The notes under the pieces were generated by a model. It was not told the DNA's origin. It ran no database searches and saw only the letters and a program-made list of their open reading frames with translations. A program made the position numbers and the translations under genes. A stretch of 64,000 nt of DNA from Mobula hypostoma (lineage: Eukaryota): positions 58,716,001 to 58,780,000 of the forward strand of contig NC_086097.1 in NCBI RefSeq assembly GCF_963921235.1, read 5' to 3'. Shown piece after piece: positions 12,155 through 49,541 of the stretch; within the stretch, counting starts at the first letter, position 1; every line of letters begins with the position of its first letter.

Positions 12155-14195
12155 TGCTGTGTATTTAATATTTCAGTAATATTTGAGTAAAATTGTCAAT
12201 ATGTTGTTGATTAAGAATTCTCTGTTTAAGTGATTCATGTAAAATATGAGAATTGCTTAAGTCATGATGCATGCATGTCTCACTAAAGTAAAGAACAAAT
12301 TAAGACTCGCACCTCTTGGCTCTCTTGTTTTCCTTTCAATTACTTTAATGTTTTGTTATTACAAAACTTAACAGTGGTGACAAGGTATTTTTAAAAAATA
12401 AACCCAGATGACTACCTACTTGCTGAAGCGCAGTGAGATGGTTGAGTTAAAAAAATGCACAGCATGTTTCTTTTTTCCTCAAGGCAGCATATTTTATTCA
12501 TAAAAAGGAAAGGTGATTGAGTTTAAAAGAAGGGAGGAAAATGGATGAATTCACGGGTTCATAAACAATGAGTACTGGATGATAATAATCATAAAAATAG
12601 AGCAGAAATGGCTGGCTACATTGGAAAGGTTGATGTGTTTGATGACAAAACAGATAACTGGCACATGTGTATAGAATGTATTGAAGAGTATTTTAGATCA
12701 AATGAATAGCCAAGGAGAAACAAACACCAGTTTTGCTGAGTGCATTGGATGGAAAGCATACAGTTTGCTTATGAATTTGACTGTTGCAACCAAACCAGCG
12801 GAAGTGTGCTTTGTGAAAGTAATGCAGGAACATTTAGACCAAACCCATTGTTGATTGCAGAAAATTTTAGGTTTCATAAGTGGAATCAAAAGGAAGGGTG
12901 CTCTATTTTAGCATATGTGGCTGAATGAAGAGATTGTCTGAGCATTGTCAGTTCAGTGATGGGTTTAATGATGCACTGAGATAATTTAGTTTGTGGAACC
13001 TTCCAAGAAAGCATTCAAAAATGGCCCCTAATTGAAGCATGACGCACATTTAAAAGAACAGTGGAAAGTACTATATCAATGGAAACAGTGGGCAGAGATG
13101 CAATTGAGTTGCAGTCAGGATTGAAAATGAGCTTGAACAAAATTGACATGTGTAAACGGAAACAGGCCTGCATGAACAAGTCGTGTTATCATCTTGGCAG
13201 GGGCTCACATACACCAGACCATTGTCAATTTAAAGTTGAAACTCGCAGACATTGCAACAAAGTAGGATACGTACAGGGAAACAGTCAGGCAGACAAAAAT
13301 AACTAGATTGCACAGGGAAGAAAAAAGATAAAAAAGTCAATTTGCAGTTTCAAAAAGAGCACTAAATTGCATGCTGTTGATGAAATATCTGATAATGGTG
13401 AGAAAGATATAGGACTGTGTAGTCTTAAGATTTACATGTGAAAACTAACAATAGACAAGTAATGATTACACCAAAAGAGAATGGCTATATATTAAAATGA
13501 AATTTGACACTGGCTTGGCTGTTTCTGTCATTTCATAATGAGTTTGAATGGCATTTGGAAGATACTAAACTGAAGCCTGCAGATGTCCAATAAAGAATTT
13601 ATACTGGAGAAAAGATAATTCCTGTAGGAATGATATTTGTAATAGTGAAATACAACAACCCACCCGGCACATTGGATTTGTATGTGGTAAAAACAGGAGG
13701 GCCAACAATGTGGCATCATGATTGGCTGAGACAACTACAACTTGATTAGAGATCCATCCACCTGTAATCGCGTCAATTGAAAGCAAATTAAGAAAGGTAC
13801 TGGATGCTGCCACATCAGTGCTCAGGAATAACATTGGTAAACTTAAACATATCAAGGGTAAAATAATGTTAAATGAAAATGCCACCAAAAGTACTACAAG
13901 GACCATCTGGTTCTTATACCATCCATGATAAATAGAAATTCAGAGACTGAAGGAATTCTTTCCAAGGCTGAGTGGAACCAATGGGCAATGTTAGTGATCC
14001 TAGTAGCTAAGAAGAATGGGTCTGTCAGGATCTGTGATGATTTTAGGGTCACCATCAACCCAATGCTGAAAGTAGATCAGTACCCTCTGCTCTGAATAGA
14101 GGATGTCCTTGCAAATGTTCCCAGAGGAAAACACTTCAGCAAAGTTATCTTAGCTCAGGCCTACCTGTGTATGGAGATAGAAGAATATTGAAAGT

Positions 14196-15705
14196 GTTGG
14201 ATAGAATTTTTGTCACAGTGAGGGGGCATAGGGAGCAAGGGTGGACCCAAATGCAAGACACATCTTGTGAGGTTAATTAAATTTAGTTCATTGTTCGATA
14301 CCAGGAGACGAAGGCAGGAGCAGGAATAATGAACTGGACAAGGTCTCGGAACTACAGCTAGGCTGGGACTAAGGGTCTGGGCTAGTTCTTGGAATCGGAT
14401 CCCAGTAGAGGTGACATGAAGAGGCTACGGTATGGACTCCGAGCCAGGGACTGGGCAAGGACCCAGTACCTGGTTCTTGCCTCGGGCTCAGATCCCAGAA
14501 CCAGGCATGGACATGACATGGGCTGGAGAGAGGAGGAACATGGAAAAACAGAGCTTTGGTCTCGGGAGAGCAGGTACATGGAACCATGAACGCATACACA
14601 GAACACAGAGTCGGGACCCCTCCTTGGGTACAGGACATAGGGCCAGGACTCATGATCCCCCACGGGGCAACGGCAAGACGGCTTTACTTATCCCATGGAG
14701 ACAAGGACAAGACAAGACAAGACATGACCCCCCGCAGGGCAACGGCAAGATGGCCTGACTTACCCCACGGAGGTGAGGACAAGACAAAACAAGACATGAC
14801 CCTCCACGGGGCAATGGCAAGATGGCCTGACTTACCCCACGGAGGCGAGACAAGACAAGACAAGACATGAAAGAACACCAGACAGTACCTATCTAGCTCT
14901 GGTGATAGAACTAGACCAAGGTGCAGGCGAGGGCTGCAGACGAGGGCTAGAGGTGAGAGGGGCAGAGAAGGGATTCAGACAGGGGGGTAGGACAGGAATC
15001 ACAGACCACCAGGGCCAGGACTTGACTCGGAACTTGGATGCCACCAGGGACAGGACTTGATTCGGAACTTGGATGCTGCCAGGGACAGGACTTGACTCGG
15101 TACTTGGATGCCGCCGGGTAGTGACGAACTCTCGACTTGGCCCGGGAACAGTAGACAGCGGTTCTTGATTCCCTCCAGTGGGTTAACTAATGGACCCACC
15201 TTGGTGAGGAAACTTTGCAGGCTCGCCTTGGCGAGGTAACTTGACAGGGTTGTTCCGGTGAGGAAAGGTGAATTACTGGCACTCGCTTCGGGTGGAGACT
15301 AGGGAGTAGGCTTGCTCCGGCCAGATGACATTGGCATGCCGTACCTTTGGTGACTTTGCAGACGCTCCCACGTCGAACAGCTGAAAGCTGGAGACAATAA
15401 ACTACCAGTTCAGCCGGGAGTAAATTGCCCCTAATCACCAAGGCCAAGGGACACGGGAAAACAGGGAACCAAAGGGAAAGAGGGAGTCAATGGTCCGGAT
15501 CGTAACGTAAACAAAGTAAATTTAAAGGGACCCCGATCCGGACCATGACATTTTTGTGTAGTAGGGGAATTAAAGGTTATGGGGAAAAGGCGGGTGGGTG
15601 AAGATGAGTCCATGGCCAGATCAGCCATGATCTTATTGAATGGAAGAGCAGGCTCAACGGGCCAGATGGCCTACTCCTGCTCCTATTTCTTATGTTCTAA
15701 TGTTT
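14196..15705 (+). mobile_element. CR1 LINE 3' end (14196-14210 plus 15551-15705) inserted in the Gypsy RT
   Basis: gttggatagaatttt joins to tgtgtagtaggggaattaaaggttatgggg...atcagccatgatcttattgaatgg...cctactcctgctcctatttcttatgttct, a typical CR1 3' UTR similar to 56085-56237. Confidence 0.8.
14211..15550 (-). mobile_element. 1340-bp solo LTR (TGTCA...TGACA), probably Gypsy-type, with internal 72-bp x3 and 35-bp x3 tandem repeats
   Basis: Termini tgtcac (14211) and catgaca (15550), T-run (tttt) on both flanks. 72-bp units start at 14651/14723/14795; 35-bp units start at 15016/15051/15086. Minus-strand end ...gcatttgggtcc...ctgtgaca. No coding motif. Confidence 0.75.
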
Positions 15706-16831
15706 CTTATTTTTGGAGTAGCATCTGCACCTGCAGTCTGGCAGAAAACTATGGACCAGGTGATGCAAGGCTGCCCAGGCACTCAGTGTTACCTGGATGA
15801 CATCATTGTTACCAATAAGGCTGAACATCTCCAAAAATCTCAAGAAAATGTTAAAAAGATTAGAAGATTATGGGCTCAGAGCTGAACGCAGCAAGTGTGA
15901 GTTCTTTAAACCAAGCATCATTTACTGTGGTTACACCATCAATGCACAAAGATTACAGTGCTGTGCTAAGAAAATTCAAGCAGTGGTGGATTCCCCAAGG
16001 CCAAAAGATGTGTTGTAGTTGCGGTTCTTTTTAGGATTTGTCAATTACTATAACATGTTTCTGCTAAACCTGGCTACTGCGCTCCACCCCCTGAACACAT
16101 TACTCCAGATCAGGAAGAAATGGCAATGGACGAAGCAGTGTGAGGTGGCTTTCCAAAAGACAAATGAAACGGTCATGTCAGACATTGTACTCAGCCATTA
16201 TGATCCATATCGTCCAGTGAGGCTTGCCATACACTGTTCGGAATGCCAACATGCCCAGAAGAAGGTGTCCAGAGCTGTCAGAACCACTTCCTGTAGTTTC
16301 AGAGTCAACTTCTACAACCACCATGGAGGAGGCCCCAGAACCCGAGATTGTTTCACAGCCACAATTCTCTCCTGCCAAGCAGAATAGTGACTAGTGACTT
16401 GTCAGGAAAGGAGTTATTTCACTGGAGTAAGAAGTCCCCCACAGTGATTAACTCTTTAGGCCTAGATGGGACATTTTAAAATTTACTATCCTATAGATGT
16501 GTGTATATAATAGTTGTATTATATAGTATATTGTGTATATCATTGAGATGCATTCTGTATTGAGTTGGAATTTATAGCTAACCAGGGAGGAGGTTGTGTA
16601 ACTTAATATTTCAGTAATCTTGTAAATATATTGTTTGAATAAGCATTCTTTATTTGTTTAAATAATATATTATGGGTTGTATGTAAAAATATGTGAATTA
16701 CATATGTTATGACGCTACCACCCGATATGTGTGCGTCTCGCTAAAGTATAGAAAAACATAAGACTCGTATCTCTCAACTCTCTTATTTTACTTTCAATTA
16801 GTTTCATGTTTTTGTATTACAAAACTTAACA

Positions 16832-16925
16832 GATGGGAAAGTCCTTATCAAATGCCATTAATTACAAACAATAAAAGTAGAAGGTAGAAGCAAGTGGATA
16901 CATGCTAGCCATCACAAGTGAGCTG
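16832..16925 (+). pseudogene. pol: Continuation of ERV integrase (GPY/F module) after the Gypsy insertion
   Basis: WESPYQMPLIT...KVEGRSKWIHASHHK resembles the retroviral RWEGPYQVLL...VKVEG..WIHASH motif and continues KKLYKKPLSS at 12121-12150. Confidence 0.85.
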
Positions 16926-22014: not shown

Positions 22015-25000
22015 ATTAGATTAGATTAGATTCAACTTTATTGTTATAGTGCTGAGTACAGATACAAAGCCAATGAAATGCATTTAGCATCTGACCAGAA
22101 ATGCAAAGAATAGTGTTATTTACAAAATAACTGCTAATAAAAAGTAAGTGCTACAGCACACAAATATGTGTGTGTTGTTCGTCCTTCGTAGTTGAAGATG
22201 ACCATGGCTTCAAAGTCAAATGGGAGATTAGTGGCTGTGGGTCCGGAGGTGACTGATGAGGCCAATCCGGGCCCTGAAGGCTCGCCCACATGTGGGACAC
22301 AAGTGGGTGGGTGCTGTCGTGGTAGTGGATGCTGCTCAGGCCTTGCGCACAGCACGCTTTCATTGCGCCTCAATGATGCGCCTGACTTCAGCTGCACGGG
22401 CTCCTGTGGTGATCTTGCTGCGCCAAGCTGGACGGTCGAGGGCAATAGTCTCCCACGTGTTGATGTCGACACCCAGGCCTTTGAGGGACGCTTTCAGGCA
22501 GTCTTTGTAACGTTTCTTCTGCCCCCCCCCCCCCCGACTGAGCGCTTGCCCTGACACAGTTCTCCGTACAGCAGCTGCTTAGGCAATCGGCTGTCTGGCA
22601 TTCTGACCACATGTCCAGCCCACCTGGCTTGGGCTTTCAGCAGGAGGGTGTAGACGCTGCAGAGCCCAGCTCGTTCCAGGATTTCCGTGTCGGGAACTTT
22701 GTCCTGCCACCTGATGTGGAGGAGTCTGCGGAGACAGCTCAGGTGAAAGTGGTTGAGCTGTTTGGCGTGTCTGCTGTAGACAGTCCAGGTCTCGCTGGCG
22801 TAAAGGAGGGTGGTAAGGACCACTGCACAGTAGACCTTCAGCCTGGTGGTAAGGCTGAGTCCTCTCCGCTCCCAGACGTTCTCACGGAGTCTCCTAAAGG
22901 CGGCGCTGGCTTTGGCAATCCTGTTGTTGACCTCAGCGTCTATGTTCACTGCGCGAGAGAGTATGCTGCCCAGGTAAAACCTGCCGTCAGTCCTGTATCT
23001 GACGTGGATTCCTTCTTCATAATTACGGAAGGCATCTGTCAGCATGGCAGAGAATACCATACTGAACAGAGTCGGGGCAAGAATGCCTTGTTTGAGGTCA
23101 TTTATCACTGGGAAGGCCTCCGACTCGTCGCCGTCATCCAGAACTTTCACCACCATACCGTCGTGAAACTGCCGGATGATTGTGATGAACTTGCTGGGGC
23201 AGCCAAACTTCTCCATGATCTTCCACAAGCCTTCTCTACTGACAGTATCGAAAGCCTTGGTTAGATCGACAAAGGTCACGAAGAGCTCGCTGTGTTGCTG
23301 CTGGCATTTTTCCTGGAGTTGGCGCGCAGTAAAAATCATGTCCGCGGTCCCACGTTCAGCACGGAAGCCGCACCGGCTTTCTGGGAGCAGACCTTGCTCA
23401 AGATGTTGGAGAAGGCGGTTGAGCAGGACGCGGGCCAGAATCTTCCCCGCAATGGACAAGAGGGAGATGCCTCGGTGGTTGTCGCAAGACTGGCGGTTGC
23501 CTTTCCTCTTGCAGATGTGGACTATGCTGGCATCTTTCAGCTGTTGCGGAACCTGTCCCTTTTTCCACATGGACTGGAAGAGTACAGTCAGCTTTTGCAT
23601 CATGACAGGGCCTCCTGCTTTGTATACCTCAGCAGGGATTGCATCGGGTCCTGGCGCTTTGCCACAGGAGAGTTGCTTCACTGCCTTCCTGACTTCATCT
23701 ACTGTGGGGAGGGTGTCGAGGTTCTAGCTGATCTCTACCTGGGGCAGGCGGGCAATGGCCTCGTCGTTGATGTCGGCAGGGCGGTTAAGGACGTTGTTAA
23801 AGTGCTCAGCCCACCGATCCAGAATCTGCTTCTTCTCTGTCAGCAGCTGCGTCTCATCTGCGTTGAGGAGGGGTGAGGAGCCGGAGGACTGGGGTCCGTA
23901 TACAGCCTTAAGCGCATCGTAGAAGCGCTTTATGTCGTGGCTGTCTGCATAGCCCTGGATTTCATCGGCCTTCTTGCTGAACCAGCTGTCCTGCATCTCG
24001 CGAAGTTTTTTCTGCACCTTTCTTCTTGCGTTGGTAAAGGCATCTTTCTTGGCTAGAGACGTGGGGTCGTTCTGATGCACTCTGTAATGTTGATGTTTCT
24101 CCGTTAGTAGTGCCTGTATTTCTTCATCATTCTCATCGAACCAGTCTTGGTCTTTTCGGGTTGCTGGTCCGAGATGTTCGAGGGCGGTAGTGTAGACAGC
24201 GTCTCTGAAGTCCGTCCACTGTTCCTCAACGCTGGTCCCGTCATCCTGTAGTGTGTCTGGCAGTCTGCCTTCAAGGTCATCGACGAAGTCTTCTGCAACC
24301 CTGCTGCTTTTCAGCTTGGAGACATTCAACCTCTTTGCAGTCTTCTGCCCTTGGGGTCTTCTCATGGGCAGAATGCGAAGCCTGAACTTGGACACAATGA
24401 GGCGGTGGTCGGTCCAGCAGTCGGCACCACACATGGCTCTCGTCACTCTGACATTCATCCTGTCCCTCTTCCTGGTGATGATGTAGTCAATCAGATGCCA
24501 GTGCTTCGAGCGTGGGTGCATCCATGACGTCTTCTTACGGGTGGGTAGGCAGAACAGGGTGTTGGTGATGACCAGGTCGTGTGTGGCACACGTCTTGAGG
24601 AGCAGAAGGCCGTTGTTGTTACACTTGCCAGTGCCGTGTCTTCCAATGATCCCTTCCCAGGTTTGGTAGTCTGTCCTTACTCTGGCATTGAAGTCCCCGA
24701 GAATGATGAGCTCCTCTGACTGTGGGATTGCTGAGATGAGGGCGTCGAGTTCCTCATAGAACTTGTCTTTAATGTCATCTGGGTTGGTCATGGTGGGAGC
24801 GTAGGCACTAATCAGCGTAGCACTCTTCTTGTTTGCAAGTGGGAGCTGAAATCGTTGATGCTCTCTGGTGCTTGGTGAGTTTACGGGCGGGGTTAGAATT
24901 GATGGCAAATCCCACGCCTGCTTCTCGTCGTTCAGCGCTGCTGCAACCCCTTCAGAAGAACGTGTATCCACCACTACGTTCTGTCAGCTGGCCCTTGTCT

Positions 25001-31989: not shown

Positions 31990-33095
31990 AGATGTCCCCC
32001 AGTAAGGGAAACATCTCTTCAGCATCAGTCTTCCTCAGAATTTCATAGGCTTCATTAAGATCACCTCTAATTCATCTGAATGCCAATGTGTATTGGCCCA
32101 ACCTACTCAACTTCTCAGCACACATCATCTTTCATCCCAAGAAGCAACCTAGTAAATCTTTCTTGCATTGTACAGCCTCCAGGTGCAACATATACGTCAG
32201 TTTTGTAGTGAGTTGCACCAAGACACCTCTATTTACAATATGCCCAATATTCCATTAGGAATAGGCAAGCTCTATTACGAGAAGATGAGCATCAGAGTTG
32301 TATTGTACATGCATTCTTTGACAATAAAATGAGCCTTTGAACCCTCACCAAACAGATTCTGAACCTCTATATGTTTTGAATTCTCAGATCCGCAGATCCC
32401 ATTGTATCACTACGTTTTATGGTCTAAGTCTACCTACACAGTAACTTGTTTACTCATTCATTTTTCCACTGTGATAGCTACATTTTCTGCACATTATACT
32501 CTATCCGAAAAATTCTTAGTCATTCATTTAACCTATTAAACTAACCATTTGCAGAAACCTCATTTACTCTTACAACTTGCCGACCCACCTTCCTTGTACC
32601 ATCAGCAAATCTGGCCATGTACACAGGTCACTTTAAGTTATTAATATAGATTATGAATAGTTGAGACTCTGCAGCATCTCGCTAGTTACTGATTACCAGT
32701 GATGACTAATGACTCGTATTTTTCTGCAACACACATCAAAGTTGCTGGTGAATGCAGCAGGCCAGGCAGCATCTCTAGGAAGAAGTACAGTCGACTTTTC
32801 CTAGAGATGCTGCCTGGCCTGCTGCGTTCACCAGCAACTTTGATGTGTTGCTTGAATTTCCAACATCTGTAGAATTCCTGTTGTGTTCGTATTTTTCTGA
32901 CTGTTTTCTGTTAATTATCCAATTTCCATCCATTCTGACATATTACTCCCAACCCTATGCACTCTTATCTAGCAACCATTTATATGCAAACTTATCGAAT
33001 GCCTTCTGAAAATATCAATATATTGCATCTGCTGGTTGCTCTTATCCAGCTTGTATAATACAACCTCATGGAGCTCCTGTATATTTCTCAAACAT
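31990..33095 (-). mobile_element. Old CR1 RT fragments
   Basis: Reverse complements of FADGT (~32600-32612) and FQKAFDK (~32990-33012). Confidence 0.6.
32727..32886. mobile_element. 160-bp fold-back Penelope-tail element with 13-bp TSD
   Basis: Inverted arms ~32727-32781 and 32798-32850. Perfect TSD TCGTATTTTTCTG at 32714-32726 and 32887-32899. Confidence 0.9.
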
Positions 33096-40025: not shown

Positions 40026-40749
40026 TTCAAACTCAGCCCCCTCCTTTCAAATTAATGTGCTGACTCTTCCTGGGCCAGGTTCTAACCTACTTAAGATTCC
40101 CTAAGCTTTTGGCACTAGGGAAATCCAGCATGTTTGTATTCTACTACTGGCAAAGATTCTTTCACTGTTCAAGATTGCTTCTAGCTGTATTTCTCCCCAC
40201 AACTTGTTTTCTCTGTGATCTCCCTTCCCTGACTATGTTTCCTCTGATCACAATACTCTCAACCACAAAATCTCCCTCTCTTCTTAAACCTCCCATCAAC
40301 TGATTCAGTTTGATCATCAGTAGCCTCCCAATCCCCATACATTCTTTCCCTTCATTCATTGTTCTTTCAGTTGTTACCTTGTGCTGCCCTCCTGCAGCCA
40401 ATAGATCAAACTTAGACACTCACTTTTAGAGTAACCCTGAGGAAATGTTTAATAATTGGTATACTTACATTGTACATATTCAAATACAGTAAGCACTTTG
40501 TAGTCACAGGTAAAATTGGACTTTAATAAAGCTGACGGCTTCTCGCCTGTCAGAGGATATTTCCACCCATTTTAACACCACCCCCCAATTCTTACATTAA
40601 ATCTGTAGTTGACATCAGTGGCATTCATTGGGAATAGGGATGCTTGGAGTCATGTCTGAACTAATGGTCTGTATCATATTAGTTTCTAAAAGTTTCTAAT
40701 TACCCTTGGCTGCAAAATGAGCAAGTACAGTTGTAGTAGCACCACAGTC

Positions 40750-41228
40750 CAGGTAGTTATGGTGCCAAGGCAGGGCATGAAACAATGCAGCCTCACTTTA
40801 CAGCTGGTTGTGGTGCCAAGGCAGGGCATGAAACAATGCAGCCTCACTTTACAGCTGGTTGTGGTGCCAAGGCAGGGCATGAAACAATGCAGCCTCACTT
40901 TACAGCTGGTTGTGGTGCCAAGGCAGGGCATGAAACAATGCAGCCTCACTTTACAGGTAGTATTGGTGCCAAGGCAGGGCATGAAACAATGCAGCCTCAC
41001 TTTACAGCTGGTTGTGGTGCCAAGGCAGGGCATGAAACAATGCAGCCTCACTTTACAGGTAGTTTTGGTGCCAAGGCAGGGCATGAAACAATGCAGCCTC
41101 ACTTTACAGCTGGTTGTGGTGCCAAGGCAGGGCATGAAACAATGCAGCCTCACTTTACAGGTAGTTTTGGTGCCAAGGCAGGGCATGAAACAATGCAGCC
41201 TCACTTTACAGCTGGTTGTGGTGCCAAG
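40750..41228. repeat. 51-bp minisatellite, ~9.4 units (resumes at 43471-43542)
   Basis: Unit ggtgccaaggcagggcatgaaacaatgcagcctcactttacag(ctggttgt or gtagt.tt), starting every 51 bp from 40761. Confidence 0.97.
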
Positions 41229-42710
41229 TCAGCCTCTCACTGCTACGGGCGGAAGTTCCCACTTGCTTCGAAAAGGCGACAATTATGCAAGTGCCTAAGA
41301 AGAATAATGTGAGCTGCCTTAATGACTACCGCCTAGTATCACTCACATTGACAGTGATGAAATGCTTTGAGAGGTTGGTCATGACTAAAATGAACTCCTC
41401 CCTCAGCAAGGACCTGAGCCTATTGCAATTTGCCTATCGCCACAATAGGTCAACAGCAGACGCAATCTCAATGGCTCTCCACACGGCTTTAGACCACCTA
41501 GGCAACACAAACACCTACGTCAGGATGCTGTTCATCGACTAAAGCTCAGCATTTAATACCATAATTCCCACAATCCTGATTGAGAAGTTGCAGAACCTGG
41601 GCCTCTGTACCTCCCTCTGCAATTGGATTCTCGACTTCCTAACCGGAAGACCACAGTCTGTGTGGATTGGAGATAACACATCCTCCTTGTTGACAATCAA
41701 CACTGACGCACCACAGGGGTGTGTGCTTAGCCCACTGTTCTACTCTCTGTATACACATGATTGTGTGGCTAGGCATAGCTCAAATACCATCTACAAATTT
41801 GCTGACGATACAACCACTGTTGGTAGAATCTCAGGCGGTGACAACAGGGCGTTCAGGAGTAAGATATGCTAACTAGTGGAATGGCGCCGCAGCAAAAACC
41901 TGGCACTTAACGTCAGTTAAACAAAAGAGCTGATTGTGGACTTCAGCAAGGGTAAGACGAAGGAACACATACCAATCCTCATAGAGGGATCAGAAGCGGA
42001 GAGAGTGAGCAGTTTCAAGTTCCTCGGTGTCAGGATCTCCGAGGATATAACCTGGTCCCAACATATCGATGCAGTCATAAAGAAGGCAAGACAGTGGCTA
42101 TACTCTACTACGAGTTTGAAGAGATTTGGCGTGTCAACAAATACACTCAAAAACTTCTATAGTTGTACCATGGAGAGCATTCTGACAGGCTGCATCACTG
42201 TCTGGTATGGAGAGGCTACTGCACAGGACCGAAAGAAGCTGCAGAAGGTTGTAAATCTATTCAGCTCCATCTTGGGTACTAGCCTACAAAGTACCCGGGA
42301 CATCTTTAGGGAGCGGTGTCTCAGAAAGGCAGCGTCCATTATTGAGGACCTCCAGCACCCAGGGCATGCCCTTTTCTCACTGTTACCATCAGGTAGGAGG
42401 TACAGAAGCCTGAAGGCACACACTCAGCGATTCAGGAACAGCTTCTTCCCCTCTGCCATCTGATTCTAGAATGGACATTGAAGCTTTGGACCCTACTTCA
42501 CTTCTTTTAATATACAGTATTTCTGTTTTTGCACATTTTTTAATCTATTCAATATACTTAATCGATTTACTTGTTTATTTATTATTATGTTTTATTTTAT
42601 TTAATTTTTTTCTCTCTCTGCTAGATTATGTATTGCATTGAACTGCTGCTGCTAAGTTAACAAATTTCACATCACATGTCGGTGATAATAAACCTGATTC
42701 TCATTCTGAT
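41229..42710 (+). mobile_element. 5'-truncated Rex1/Babar LINE inserted in the minisatellite
   Basis: [53 protein letters not shown]; tail aataaacctgattctcattctgat. Confidence 0.93.
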
Positions 42711-43470
42711 TTCCAGGAGGGTAAGATGAAGGATCACTTACCAATCCTGAGGGATCAGAAGTGGAGAGAGTGAGCAGCTTCAAGTTCCTGTGTGACAAGA
42801 CCTTTGAGGATCTAACCTGGTCTCAACATATCGATGCAGTTGTAATAAAGGCAAGATAGCGGGTATTCTTCATTAGGAGTTTGAAGAGATTTGGTGCTAC
42901 AACAATACACTCAAAAACTTCTATAGTTGTACCATGGAGAGCATTCTGACAGGCTGCATCACTGTCTGGTGTGGGAGGGGGGCTACTGCACAGGGCCGGA
43001 AGAAGCTACAGGAGTTTGTAAATTTACTCAGCTCAATCTTGGGTACTAGCCTACAAAGTACCCAGGACATCTTCAGGGAGCGGTGTCTCAGAAAGGCAGT
43101 GTCCATTATTGAGGACCTCCAGCACCCAGGACATGCCCTTTTCTCACTGTTGCCATCGGGTAGGAGGTACAGAAGCCTGAAGGCACACACTCAGTGATTC
43201 AGGAACAGCTTCTTCCCCTCTGCCATCCGATTCCTAAATGGACATTGAACCCTTGGACACTACCTCACCTTTTTAATATATAGTATTTCTGTTTTTGCGC
43301 AATTTTCAATCTATTCAATATACATATACTGTAATTGATTGATTGATTATTATTATTTTTTTAGCTTGTTTTTTTTCTTCTATATTATGAATTGCATTGA
43401 ACTGCTGCTGCTAAGTTAACAAATTTCATGTCACATGACGGTGATAATAAACCTGATTCTGATTCAGATA
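42711..43470 (+). mobile_element. Second, shorter Rex1/Babar copy joined head-to-tail to the first
   Basis: Similar but not identical to 41945-42710, with its own tail aataaacctgattctgattcagata. Confidence 0.9.
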
Positions 43471-43542
43471 CAAGGCAGGGCATGCAACAATGCAGCCTCA
43501 CATTACAGCTGGTTATGGTGCCAAGGCAGGGCATGAAACAAT
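43471..43542. repeat. Distal remnant of the 51-bp minisatellite
   Basis: caaggcagggcatgcaacaatgcagcctcacattacagctggttatggtgccaaggcagggcatgaaacaat. Confidence 0.9.
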
Positions 43543-45512: not shown

Positions 45513-45517
45513 CCCAT

Positions 45518-48500
45518 TGTGGTAAACCATGTATATAGGTTGTAACTAAGTTACCTGTTGGACATGCCTGGATATGCCCCTCTGCTGACTGCTCCTGTGG
45601 CTCCTCCCACAGACCCCTGAATAAAGGTCATTGTGTCACTGCTCCTCCCTCATTCCAGGACAGATATTCAGCATGGACGTTGGTCCATTTTACTGTTAAT
45701 AAAAGCCTTTCAGTATTTACTCTACTTCCAGTCCTTTGGAGTAATTGATAGTGCATCAATTTTATTAACAGTAATTTTAAAGCATGGAACACGTCCTGAG
45801 ACCCGACAAGCTAGACCCTGATCCGCAAATACCTGAAGCCAGAAATGCTTTCGAACTCTGGTTGGCCTGCTTCGAATCATACCTGGAGGAGATTGAAGTG
45901 ACCAAGTCTGCCGTGAAGCACAGAGTTCTCCTCTCTAGGATCAGTCCACGGGTCTACTCAATGATTCGAGACCAGCTGAGCTACGATGGCGCGATGAGCG
46001 CCCTCAGAAGACAATACCTACGGCCGGTAAGCCAGAGGGTCGCCATGGCTTCCAGGTCGCATACAACAGACATCCGGGGGGGGGTTGTGTAGCAACGCCA
46101 GTGGTTCAGGGCACAGAATATCGAGACTTTATGTTACTGGTCATGCCTGAACTGTGTGCCCCTGTGCTATTGGGGCTCGACTTCCAGAGCCACCTGAGGA
46201 GCATGACAATGGAGTATGATGGGCCCCTCCCACCAATTACTGTCGGAAATCCTCAGTTTTGTAGGGATACATCACATACCCCGCTACTGACCGCACACAC
46301 ACACCAACCCACACGTCCAACCCAACACCATGCCAACAGCCGCACTACCGATGCTACTTGTGGCCTCTCCACCCTCAAGATCCCTCCCCCACTGCTGTTC
46401 GCCAACCTGACCCCTGACTGTAAATCTGTGGCCACTAAAAGCAGGAGGTACAGCGCGGGGGACAGAGCTTTCATTAAGTCGGAGGTGCATCGGCTGCTCA
46501 GGGAGGGGGTCATTGAGGTAAGCACAAGTCCTTGGAGGGCCCAGGTGGTCGTTCTTCAGAACGGGGAGAAGAATAGGATGGTTGTGGACTATAGCCAGAC
46601 CATCAATAGGTTCACGCAGCTCGACGCGTACCCTCTACCCCGCATCGTGGATATGGTCAATCAGATAGCACAGTGCAAGGTGTACTCGACCATAGACCTA
46701 AAATCTGCTTACCATCAGCTCCCCATTCGCCGGGAGGACCACCCTTACACCGCCTTCAAGGTGGACGGTGGGCTGTATCAATTCCTGTGCATCCCCTTCG
46801 GTGTCACGAATAGTGTATCTGTCTTCCAGAGGGAAATGGACCGGATGGTGGACCAGTGCCAACTGAAGGCCACGTTCCCATATCTGGATAACATCACCAT
46901 CTGCGGTCACGACTGGCAGGATCACGACAATAACCACCAAAAATTTTTCCAAGCGGCCAAAGCTTTCAATCTCATCTATAACAAGGACAAGTGTGTTTTC
47001 AGAACCACCCGACTTGCTATCCTTGGGTGTGTTGTGGAGAAGGGAGTCATTGGCCCGACCCCGACCGTATGCACCCCCTGTTGGAACTCCCTCTTCCCAA
47101 CACCCTCAGAGCCCTCAAAAGGTGCCTGGGCTTCTTTTCATATTACGCCCAATGGGTCCCTAACTACGCAGACAAGGCCCGCCCCCTGGTCAAGTCCATC
47201 ACATTTCCCCTCTCAGCCGAGGCCCGTGCAGCCTTCAGCTGCAGTAAAGGGGACATTGCCAAAGCAGCAATGCATGCGGTGGATGAGGTCATTCCCTTCC
47301 AAGTAGAGAGTGACGCCTCCGACTTCGCGCTGGCTGCTACCCTCCACCAGGCTGGAAGACCAGTGGCGTTCTTCTCCCGTACCCTTCAAGGCCCTGAACT
47401 TCGGCACTCCGCGGTGGAGAAAGAGGCCCAGGCCATAGTGGAAGCTATTAGGCACTGGAGGCACTATCTCGCCGGCAAAAATTTCACCCTGCTGACTGAC
47501 CAGCAGTCAGTCGCATTCATGTTTAGTAACCAACAGCGGAGCAAAATCAAAAATGATAAAATTCTGAGGTGGAGAATCGAACTCTCCACTTACAACTATG
47601 GCATCATGTACAGGCCTGGGAAGCTCAATGAGCCCTCCGATGCCCTATCCTGGGGAGTGTGCGCCAGCGCGCAGATCGACCAACTATACGCCCTACATGC
47701 AGATCTTTGCCACCCGGGAGTCATCCGGCTTTTCCACTTCGTGAAAGCCCGGAACCTGCCTTACTCCCTTGAGGAGATCAGGATGATGACCAGCGACTGC
47801 CAAGTCTGCGCAGAGTGCAAACCGCACTTCTACTGACCCGAAAAGGCACCACTCATCAAGGTCACCCGCCCCTTTGAGCGACTGAGTGTTGACTTTAAGG
47901 GCCCCCTTCCCTCCACCGACTGCAATGTGTACTTTCTTAACGTTATCGACGAGTACTCGCGGTTCCCCTTCACCATCCCCTGCCCCGACACCACTACCAC
48001 GTCAGTTATAAAAGCCCTGCCCAAGCTCTTCACTCTGTTCCGATACCCATGCTATATCCACAGTGACAGAGGGTCCTCGTTTATGAGTGACGAGCTGCGC
48101 CAATACCTGCTGGCTAGGGGAATTGCAACTAGTAGGACCACGAGCTATAATCCCCCGGGGAACAGACAGGTGGAGAGGGAGAATGGCACGGTGTGGAAAG
48201 CCACACTCTTAGCCCTCAGGTCAAAGGGACTTCCAGTCTCTCACTGGCAGGAGGTCCTTCCCGAGGCACTCCACTCCATCCGCTCCCTGTTACGTACGTC
48301 CACCAATGCCAGCCCTCATGAGCGACGTTTTTCTTTTCCCAGGAAGTCGACCACCGGGACCACCCTATCAACTTGGCTGACGTCCCCAGGGCCAGTGCTG
48401 CTCCGGAAACATGCGAGGAGAAATAAATACTCCCCGATGGTCGAGAGGGTTCACTTACTTCATGCGAACCCTCAGTATGCCTACGTGGTTTTACCTGATG

Positions 48501-49125
48501 GGCGGGAGGACACGGTCTCCATCCGCGACCTGGCGCCCGCAGGAGCTCCGGGCCCCTACCCTGAACACTCCGTAGTGACTATTGACCCCGTACCCACCAA
48601 TGTATGTACCCATGAGACACCACACACTCCAAGCCCTACACAGACACCACACGACACTCCCATACCGGGCGCAACGCACACGCATGAGGGATTACCGACG
48701 CCTAACGTGCTGACACCTGAAGTCAGGCTGGAGCCAGCACAACCGCCATCGCCTGTGCAATCACCGCCGGTGCTACGTAGATCACAGCGACGGACTCGAC
48801 CGCCTGATAGACTTGACCTGTAAATATACTTGTTTTAAATATTGTCAGTCACTTCACCCCGCGGAACTCTCTTTTTTTAAAAGGAGGGGTGAATGTGGTA
48901 AACCATGTATGTAGGTTGTAACCAGGTTACCTGTCTGGACATGCCCCTCTGGTGACTGCTCCTGTGGCTTCTCACACAGACCCTTGAATAAAGGCGATTG
49001 TGTCACTGCTCCTCCCTCGTTCCAGGACAGATATTCAGCATGGACGTGGGTCCATTTTACTGTTAATAAAAGCCTTTCACTATTTGCTCTACTTCCAGTC
49101 TTTTGGAGTAATTGATAGTGCATCA
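45518..49125 (+). mobile_element. Gypsy/Ty3 LTR retrotransposon, 3608 bp: gag/protease partly deleted, RT-RNase H-integrase nearly intact
   Basis: LTRs 45518-45758 and 48894-49125 (TG...CA, ~14 substitutions plus indels). TSD CCCAT on both sides. PPT aaaaggaggggtgaa at 48879-48893. gag MEHVLRPDKL; RT SPW..RMVVDY..DLKSAYHQ..YLDN; RNase H ESDASD..EKEA..TDQ; integrase H..HPG..CQVC, VDFKGP, HSDRG, VERENG. Confidence 0.97.
46101..48823 (+). pseudogene. pol: Gypsy pol (protease tail, RT, RNase H, integrase) with one frameshift (~47058) and one in-frame stop (47834-47836)
   Basis: ORFs 46101..47306, 46991..47836 and 47927..48823 join into one pol. Confidence 0.92.
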
Positions 49126-49541
49126 CCCATTCAAATGTCCAGTGGTGGAGCAGATACCTCCCTATGTGACCTCCAGTACGTCCTTAATTTTTGCACTGCA
49201 GTGCACAAGCACGAAGTCCAGAACACAGTGCTGTAAGTCCATGGATCAATATTAAATTCCCACCCATTATCATTCTAACAATAGTTTGTTTGCTTATTTC
49301 TGACTTCATGAAATTGAAATCTCAGTTTAAAACAGTTCCGCTTGTGGACCATTTGTCTAATCTATACAGTTACACATTCTTTTACCCTTTCTCTTTATCT
49401 TTTATCTACCTCTAAAATCCCCACTGTCTGCAGTGAACATTCATTATATCCCCTCCCATGATTAATGTGATTGTATTATCATTTAAGGCTTCCTCATTCC
49501 TGTTCCTATTTTTATTTGCTTGCCTTTGTTCAAATACTTGG

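Follow-up and report, generated by a model that had tools for sequence, protein, structure and literature searches.

The window analyzed here is a 64,000-nucleotide stretch of the Mobula hypostoma genome. Toward its right end lies a Ty3/Gypsy (Metaviridae) retrotransposon, recognizable by its TG...CA long terminal repeats (LTRs), target-site duplication and polypurine tract, and lacking an env gene (Table 1). The surviving pol domains run in the order reverse transcriptase (RT), RNase H and integrase; seven of the eight long homologues scanned have the full protease-RT-RNase H-integrase order, and the eighth gave no protease match. Relatives encode a single gag-pol frame; those in the same genome measure 4.4-4.7 kb, and most of the metagenome loci are 3.8-4.4 kb long. 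Two CCHC zinc knuckles are present in 71 of the 77 long clade proteins, GP[YF] was found in the last 220 aa of none of these 77, and none of the eight long homologues scanned matched a chromodomain.

Table 1. The YLDN-bearing Gypsy element and its parts (window positions)
Feature	Position	Strand	Remarks
Target-site duplication, left copy	45513..45517	.	5 bp, CCCAT
5' LTR	45518..45758	+	TG...CA, 241 bp; 90% identity to 3' LTR
Fold-back LTR arm	45690..45704	+	putative self-primer; ends in AATAAA hexamer
Primer-binding site (PBS) position	45760..45774	+	15 nt exactly complementary to 45690-45704
gag start	45784..46030	+	ended by ~0.8 kb internal deletion
RT polymerase domain	46401..47054	+	Pfam RVT_1, E 4e-24
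First catalytic Asp (IDLKSAY)	46695..46697	+	kept
YLDN motif	46881..46892	+	retains second catalytic Asp; Asn (AAC, 46890-46892) at third position
Connection and RNase H	47039..47833	+	downstream of frameshift near 47040-47090
Integrase core and tail	47837..48823	+	without chromodomain match
Polypurine tract	48879..48893	+
3' LTR	48894..49125	+
Target-site duplication, right copy	49126..49130	.	5 bp, CCCAT

This copy is old, and it is dead: about 0.8 kb of gag-protease is deleted and both a frameshift and a stop follow. By comparison with two other copies, the deletion at ~46020-46030 removed ~0.76-0.87 kb, so that the remainder of gag with its two zinc knuckles is gone, as is the first part of the protease; the D[ST]G motif is absent from all three frames of 45760-46400. 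The frame shifts near 47040-47090, and a TGA stands at 47834-47836. The first-pass annotation of the window had described a well-preserved pol with one frameshift and one stop, both of which are there, but the missing gag-protease segment has to be added to the damage.

The distinguishing feature of the element is the reading TAT CTG GAT AAC (YLDN), in frame inside the RT, where the canonical Metaviridae motif is YxDD. The closest match among solved structures, in sequence as well as in fold, is the Ty3 RT (4OL8), and in the alignment with Ty3 the Asn faces the second Asp of YLDD. A model of the RT predicted from a 53-row alignment (mean pLDDT 85.6) again has Ty3 RT as its best match (TM 0.83-0.87) and would place YLDN at the turn that joins two palm strands. 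The motif and its frame, as first annotated, thus stand, and so does the remark that a GAC-to-AAC change would fall outside a CpG site, the preceding base being T.

A second, older Gypsy element, which we take to be Mag-like, occupies 12277-16832, with LTR-like repeats that are 84% identical; it has, as annotated, the canonical YLDD at 15790-15801, in the context GTQCYLDD. Elsewhere in the window, a tandem array of about 10 copies of a 51-base unit (40636-41334, with a further piece at 43471-43542) adjoins a 765-base duplication (41984-43469), two head-to-head SINE-like repeats at 32731-32848 make up an inverted repeat of 51 bases (98%) whose arms lie 16 bases apart, and a GC-rich stretch at 22494-24983 contains, on the minus strand, two long open frames (409 and 419 aa), probably another retroelement.

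Asparagine in the family and in a wider animal clade

A protein search of the M. hypostoma genome returned 12,912 candidates, of which 150 were scored and 30 loci taken. Among the 29 loci other than the window in this best 30 of 12,912, 27 read YLDN, one YLDS and one YLGN, and none YLDD. Because the protein query itself contained the Asn, exact 27-base contexts were counted additionally across the genome, which gave 814 copies with Asn, 6 with Asp and 7 with Ser. The Asp and Ser codons are each a single A>G change away from AAC, and since the two counts are about equal, the Asp copies can be attributed to the ordinary background of mutation and decay. A further 19 copies were chosen mostly for long open frames; 18 of these have an LTR pair (86.7-99.6% identical) and all 18 read YLDN, one copy having escaped the motif pattern. 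No variant letters at 46887-46892 appeared in contigs of seven public runs from several organisms at thresholds of 5% and 1%. Asn is an inherited, family-wide state of this high-copy Gypsy family, as the first-pass annotation had suspected when it proposed a lineage-wide variant in place of decay.

Homologous proteins extend this picture well beyond one genome. Among the 120 listed of 1094 matches, 105 have YxDN, 14 have Y/FxDD and one has another reading. The closest named proteins among the matches listed come from rays (up to 87% identity), and N-bearing named homologues include those of catsharks, an electric ray, corals and a sea anemone, whereas the damselfly homologue has D. The 147 new 50%-cluster representatives divide sharply by similarity: at 42% identity or more (n=93), 47 are DN, 40 DD, 4 other and 2 unaligned; below 42% (n=54), 52 are DD, none is DN and 2 are unaligned. 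The 80 metagenome loci taken from 503 found, on contigs that look invertebrate-like, comprise 52 with DN (39 AAT, 13 AAC), 23 with DD and 5 that are other or unaligned. The viral contigs scanned yielded no relative.

In the combined alignment, the 279 clade rows retain the first Asp in 271 cases and the second in 272, and the fourth position of the motif is N in 201, D in 76 and Y in 2; all 49 outgroup rows have D there. With this column left out, a FastTree tree was built from 328 rows, and on it the N/D distribution calls for 21 changes (13 when weak nodes are collapsed), as against a mean of 67 and a minimum of 59 for shuffled states. IQ-TREE, run on 59 rows picked by hand so as to be rich in D tips, recovers the clade with 100% SH-aLRT and forces at least 6 N/D changes. 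The deep branch order differs between the two trees. The order in which Asp members are basal and the fold-back described below predates Asn came from the FastTree tree and changed in the 59-row IQ-TREE subset, and we have discarded it. As judged from these alignments and trees, YxDN is the majority state in a large animal Gypsy lineage in which N and D switch repeatedly.

Several observations, purifying selection among them, suggest that the N-bearing RTs are functional. N is present in 62 of the 80 uninterrupted clade proteins of at least 1000 aa. Across 25 N-N pairs of metagenome loci with usable synonymous distance, which share members and are accordingly non-independent, the median dN/dS is 0.08 and the maximum 0.42. 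An LTR pair was found in 19 of the 80 metagenome loci, 17 of them DN, and in 6 of these 17 the aligned LTR stretches are 100% identical over 102-220 bp, some of the stretches being cut by contig ends. The annotation had proposed looking for Asn in copies with intact frames and identical LTRs, and these counts bear it out. Within the M. hypostoma genome, the mean dN/dS is 0.44, an ungapped estimate distorted by indels, by the selection of copies on protein similarity and by decay after insertion; the RT copies of this genome show no split into subfamily groups.

A self-complementary primer-binding site

The position of the PBS begins one base past the end of the LTR and holds no TGG-type tRNA site; instead, it is complementary to a segment of the LTR itself (Table 1), with a fold z of -3.67 that none of 200 shuffles equaled. 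Fold-backs of 15-16 exact bases occur in 12 of 18 copies from the same genome, and the two arms change together between subfamilies, a pattern of covariation. Where the metagenome loci extend far enough upstream, a fold-back of at least 11 nt that starts one base past CA is present in 22 of 36 N loci, comprising 16 different arm sequences, versus 2 of 10 D loci; control stretches yielded no fold-backs of 11 bases or more. The D-bearing loci L100 and L105 share the fold-back in the same position, and so does L116, likewise with D, with one G-U pair.

From these comparisons, the self-complementary PBS is a real trait of the clade, as surmised when the window was first annotated, and it is not tied to Asn because Asp-bearing members have it too. 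The accompanying idea, that YLDN and this PBS together define a mechanistically distinct clade, is not supported: 76 of the 279 clade rows have Asp, the two residues alternate repeatedly, and the three Asp-bearing loci just named carry the same fold-back.

The fold-back geometry fits priming toward U5, as in Tf1-type self-priming (PMC4600332, PMC6317226), for which the PBS is expected to start 0-5 bp from the LTR end (PMC6317226). It seems likely, from the pairing and its position, that minus-strand synthesis in this clade is primed by a fold-back of the element's own RNA rather than by a tRNA. In 24 of 25 metagenome fold-back cases (L051-L126) the LTR arm ends in [AT]TAAA, an AATAAA/ATTAAA-like hexamer resembling a poly(A) signal, and the arm in the window has AATAAA at its end. 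The 5' poly(A) signal would then be covered by the hairpin, and the masking of this signal could be an alternative to self-priming or a second role alongside it. Somewhat short of even odds, we would say, is the broadest picture that can be drawn from all this, that of a pan-animal, still-spreading Gypsy clade with a remodeled RT in which the third Asp is freely exchangeable with Asn, and in which the poly(A) signal forms the primer end of the LTR-PBS fold-back, so that one hairpin would serve both for priming and for masking the 5' poly(A) site.

The third catalytic position and its possible explanations

The reading that we favor, with a probability of roughly 0.8, is that YLDN is inherited in the family and in most of the wider clade, and that the RT likely needs only two catalytic aspartates to copy the RNA of the element, either Asn or Asp being tolerated at the third position. 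The metals would be bound by the two kept aspartates, as in Ty3 RT, while the amide of Asn may take over the supporting role of the third carboxylate. Clade-wide changes elsewhere in the RT, common to N and D members, would offset the loss of rate by which transposition is blocked in the D-to-N mutants of Ty1 and Ty3. Minus-strand synthesis would begin on the LTR segment paired to the PBS, in a Tf1-like manner, as a feature separate from the Asn.

The mutants of the yeast elements bear closely on this scheme. In Ty3 RT, polymerase activity is lost in D151N and D213N and survives, at lower processivity, in D214N; each of the three mutations is lethal for transposition (PMC5371799). The Ty1 mutant D211N polymerizes with a 223-fold lower kpol, prefers Mn and does not transpose, although RNase H suppressors restore transposition in part (PMC2148107). 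Neither element can do without the other two catalytic aspartates (PMC2148107, PMC5371799), and retroviral RTs require all three (PMC2148107, PMC554778). The clade keeps exactly the two aspartates that are essential in Ty1 and Ty3. The likeliest explanation that we infer from the alignment is that the background of the RT has become permissive, so that the third carboxylate is no longer required. The clade RT departs from the outgroups at many conserved columns of fingers and palm, whether a member has N or D; within 46401-47054, these departures include SPWRAQ, whose Gln replaces a Pro present in 98% of outgroup rows, and DYSQTIN, which is longer by one inserted residue than in Ty3. No column closely tracks N versus D, the largest column difference among the 279 clade rows being 0.53. 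A single compensating residue was considered as the explanation, and none was found among the clade columns; because no such residue tracks the two states, it is from the shared remodeling that we infer compensation. The repeated returns to Asp could mean that Asp is favored at times.

Other origins of the Asn fare less well. A private mutation that arose after insertion might be expected in a copy so old and broken, but this possibility is rejected, given the 814 versus 6 exact contexts in the same genome, the Asn at the other genomic loci and the 105 YxDN among the 120 homologues listed. It is also conceivable that the Asn enzyme is dead and that N elements are copied in trans by the Asp-bearing RT of a related family. 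Asp-bearing members do occur throughout the clade (76 of 279 rows), and D-to-N blocks the transposition of both Ty1 and Ty3. A dead RT, however, would not hold the site to N or D alone, nor fit with 97% conservation of the other two aspartates and the low median dN/dS of the N-N pairs, and within the 27-base pattern the Asp copies of the M. hypostoma genome stand at the level of the neutral control (6 versus 7), all of which makes copying in trans quite improbable.

Recoding presents another facet of the problem. If AAY were turned into an Asp codon by A-to-I editing of the RNA, or if the Asn were deamidated, the working enzyme would be YxDD after all. An A>G change leads from AAC to GAC, as it does from AAT to GAT, and Asp tips sit within groups of Asn relatives; if edited RNA were reverse-transcribed, such scattered returns to Asp would follow, improbable though the scheme is. 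The excess of GAY that editing predicts is absent (6 GAY, 7 AGY, 814 AAY), and no G is seen at 46890 in the few contigs of runs guessed to be RNA. Asn followed by I or V is not known as a fast deamidation context, and the Asn here precedes I or V, which counts against deamidation in turn, so that we give recoding only the slimmest of chances. Unlikely too, if less so than copying in trans, is a coupling between Asn and self-priming, whereby an altered or slower active site would be adapted to the fold-back primer or tolerated only with it. The anchored fold-backs are proportionally more frequent among N than among D loci (22/36 versus 2/10), and within our sample both traits are confined to the clade, but the 10 D loci make up two related groups, which renders these counts non-independent, and L100, L105 and L116 (the latter with one G-U pair) combine Asp with a fold-back in the same position. 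Moreover, YVDN is found in nematode BEL elements, which belong to a different superfamily (PMC554778). A one-way dependence, with self-priming permitting Asn, is possible.

Relation to known elements

YxDN is not unprecedented among LTR elements. A close likeness is found in nematode BEL/Pao elements (Cer7-Cer12 and Atlas virus), where a natural YVDN is a lineage feature, present also in intact BEL elements with identical LTRs (bioRxiv 10.1101/2021.11.23.469668, PMC554778); the 2005 paper left the activity of these enzymes open (PMC554778). These belong to another superfamily, whereas the present clade has the Ty3/Gypsy domain order and fold, no env and a length of 3.8-4.7 kb, and its members alternate between N and D at the site. 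The same position is altered in Ty1 D211N and Ty3 D214N, which keep polymerase activity (PMC2148107, PMC5371799), but these mutants do not transpose, whereas the present clade has spread to hundreds of Asn copies. Several aligned RTs of the tick HEART retroelements, a separate LTR-like lineage, read xxDN (PMC11673190), and the single YLDN match in the 418-element reference set of the same paper is the fungal Dane-1.

A PBS that matches part of the 5' LTR in complement recalls the Tf1/Sushi chromoviruses, as well as plant Tcn1 and the Copia element TAR, and, as in Tf1/Sushi, the LTR arm faces U5 with its 3' end. In Tf1/Sushi the primer is cleaved off from the transcript, whose 5' end it forms. 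The clade differs from Tf1/Sushi in having neither a chromodomain nor GPY/F, in having two zinc knuckles and in the poly(A)-signal-like hexamer at the end of the LTR arm. Two CCHC knuckles, loss of GPY/F and absence of both chromodomain and env are shared with the Cigr-1 clade of GyDB; the protease flap of Cigr-1 is listed as TANG (PMC2774666), whereas the clade flaps, compared with it by description only, are of the MAS/LAS type (by a crude pattern that parsed 16 of 77 proteins: MAS 11, MAT 2, LAS 2, AAS 1). The Kuafuorterviruses (Troyka), with an IADD/VADD/LADD motif and a length of 5-6 kb (PMC11673190), differ from the clade in both respects. RT words typical of the clade are absent from the reference alignments of PMC11673190 and from the searched supplement parts of PMC6238403, PMC8556966 and PMC2774666. 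The literature searched, which covered sources other than Repbase, GyDB and most subscription journals, contains no description of a YLDN retrotransposon and no match to a self-priming Repbase Gypsy. The clade is not tied to a named one, and it may have been catalogued earlier.

The role of the third Asp in the RT triad is a long-standing question, inasmuch as Ty1 and Ty3 polymerize without it and yet cannot transpose. What the clade supplies, as a likely case of a natural two-aspartate Gypsy RT, is many natural and closely related N/D pairs from young families, through which the role of the third carboxylate and its replacement become directly testable. It would also extend probable self-priming to a non-chromovirus lineage of animal Gypsy elements. 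For genome annotation, the practical consequence is that YxDN should not be scored as the mark of a dead RT.

Some database labels within the clade call for caution of a different kind. A ray gene model named as a PSTPIP1a isoform (P0018) contains this RT, with YLEY, and is probably an annotation fusion, and two clade proteins labeled as integrases of bacterial metagenome-assembled genomes (P0019, P0080) likely reflect contamination of the bins.
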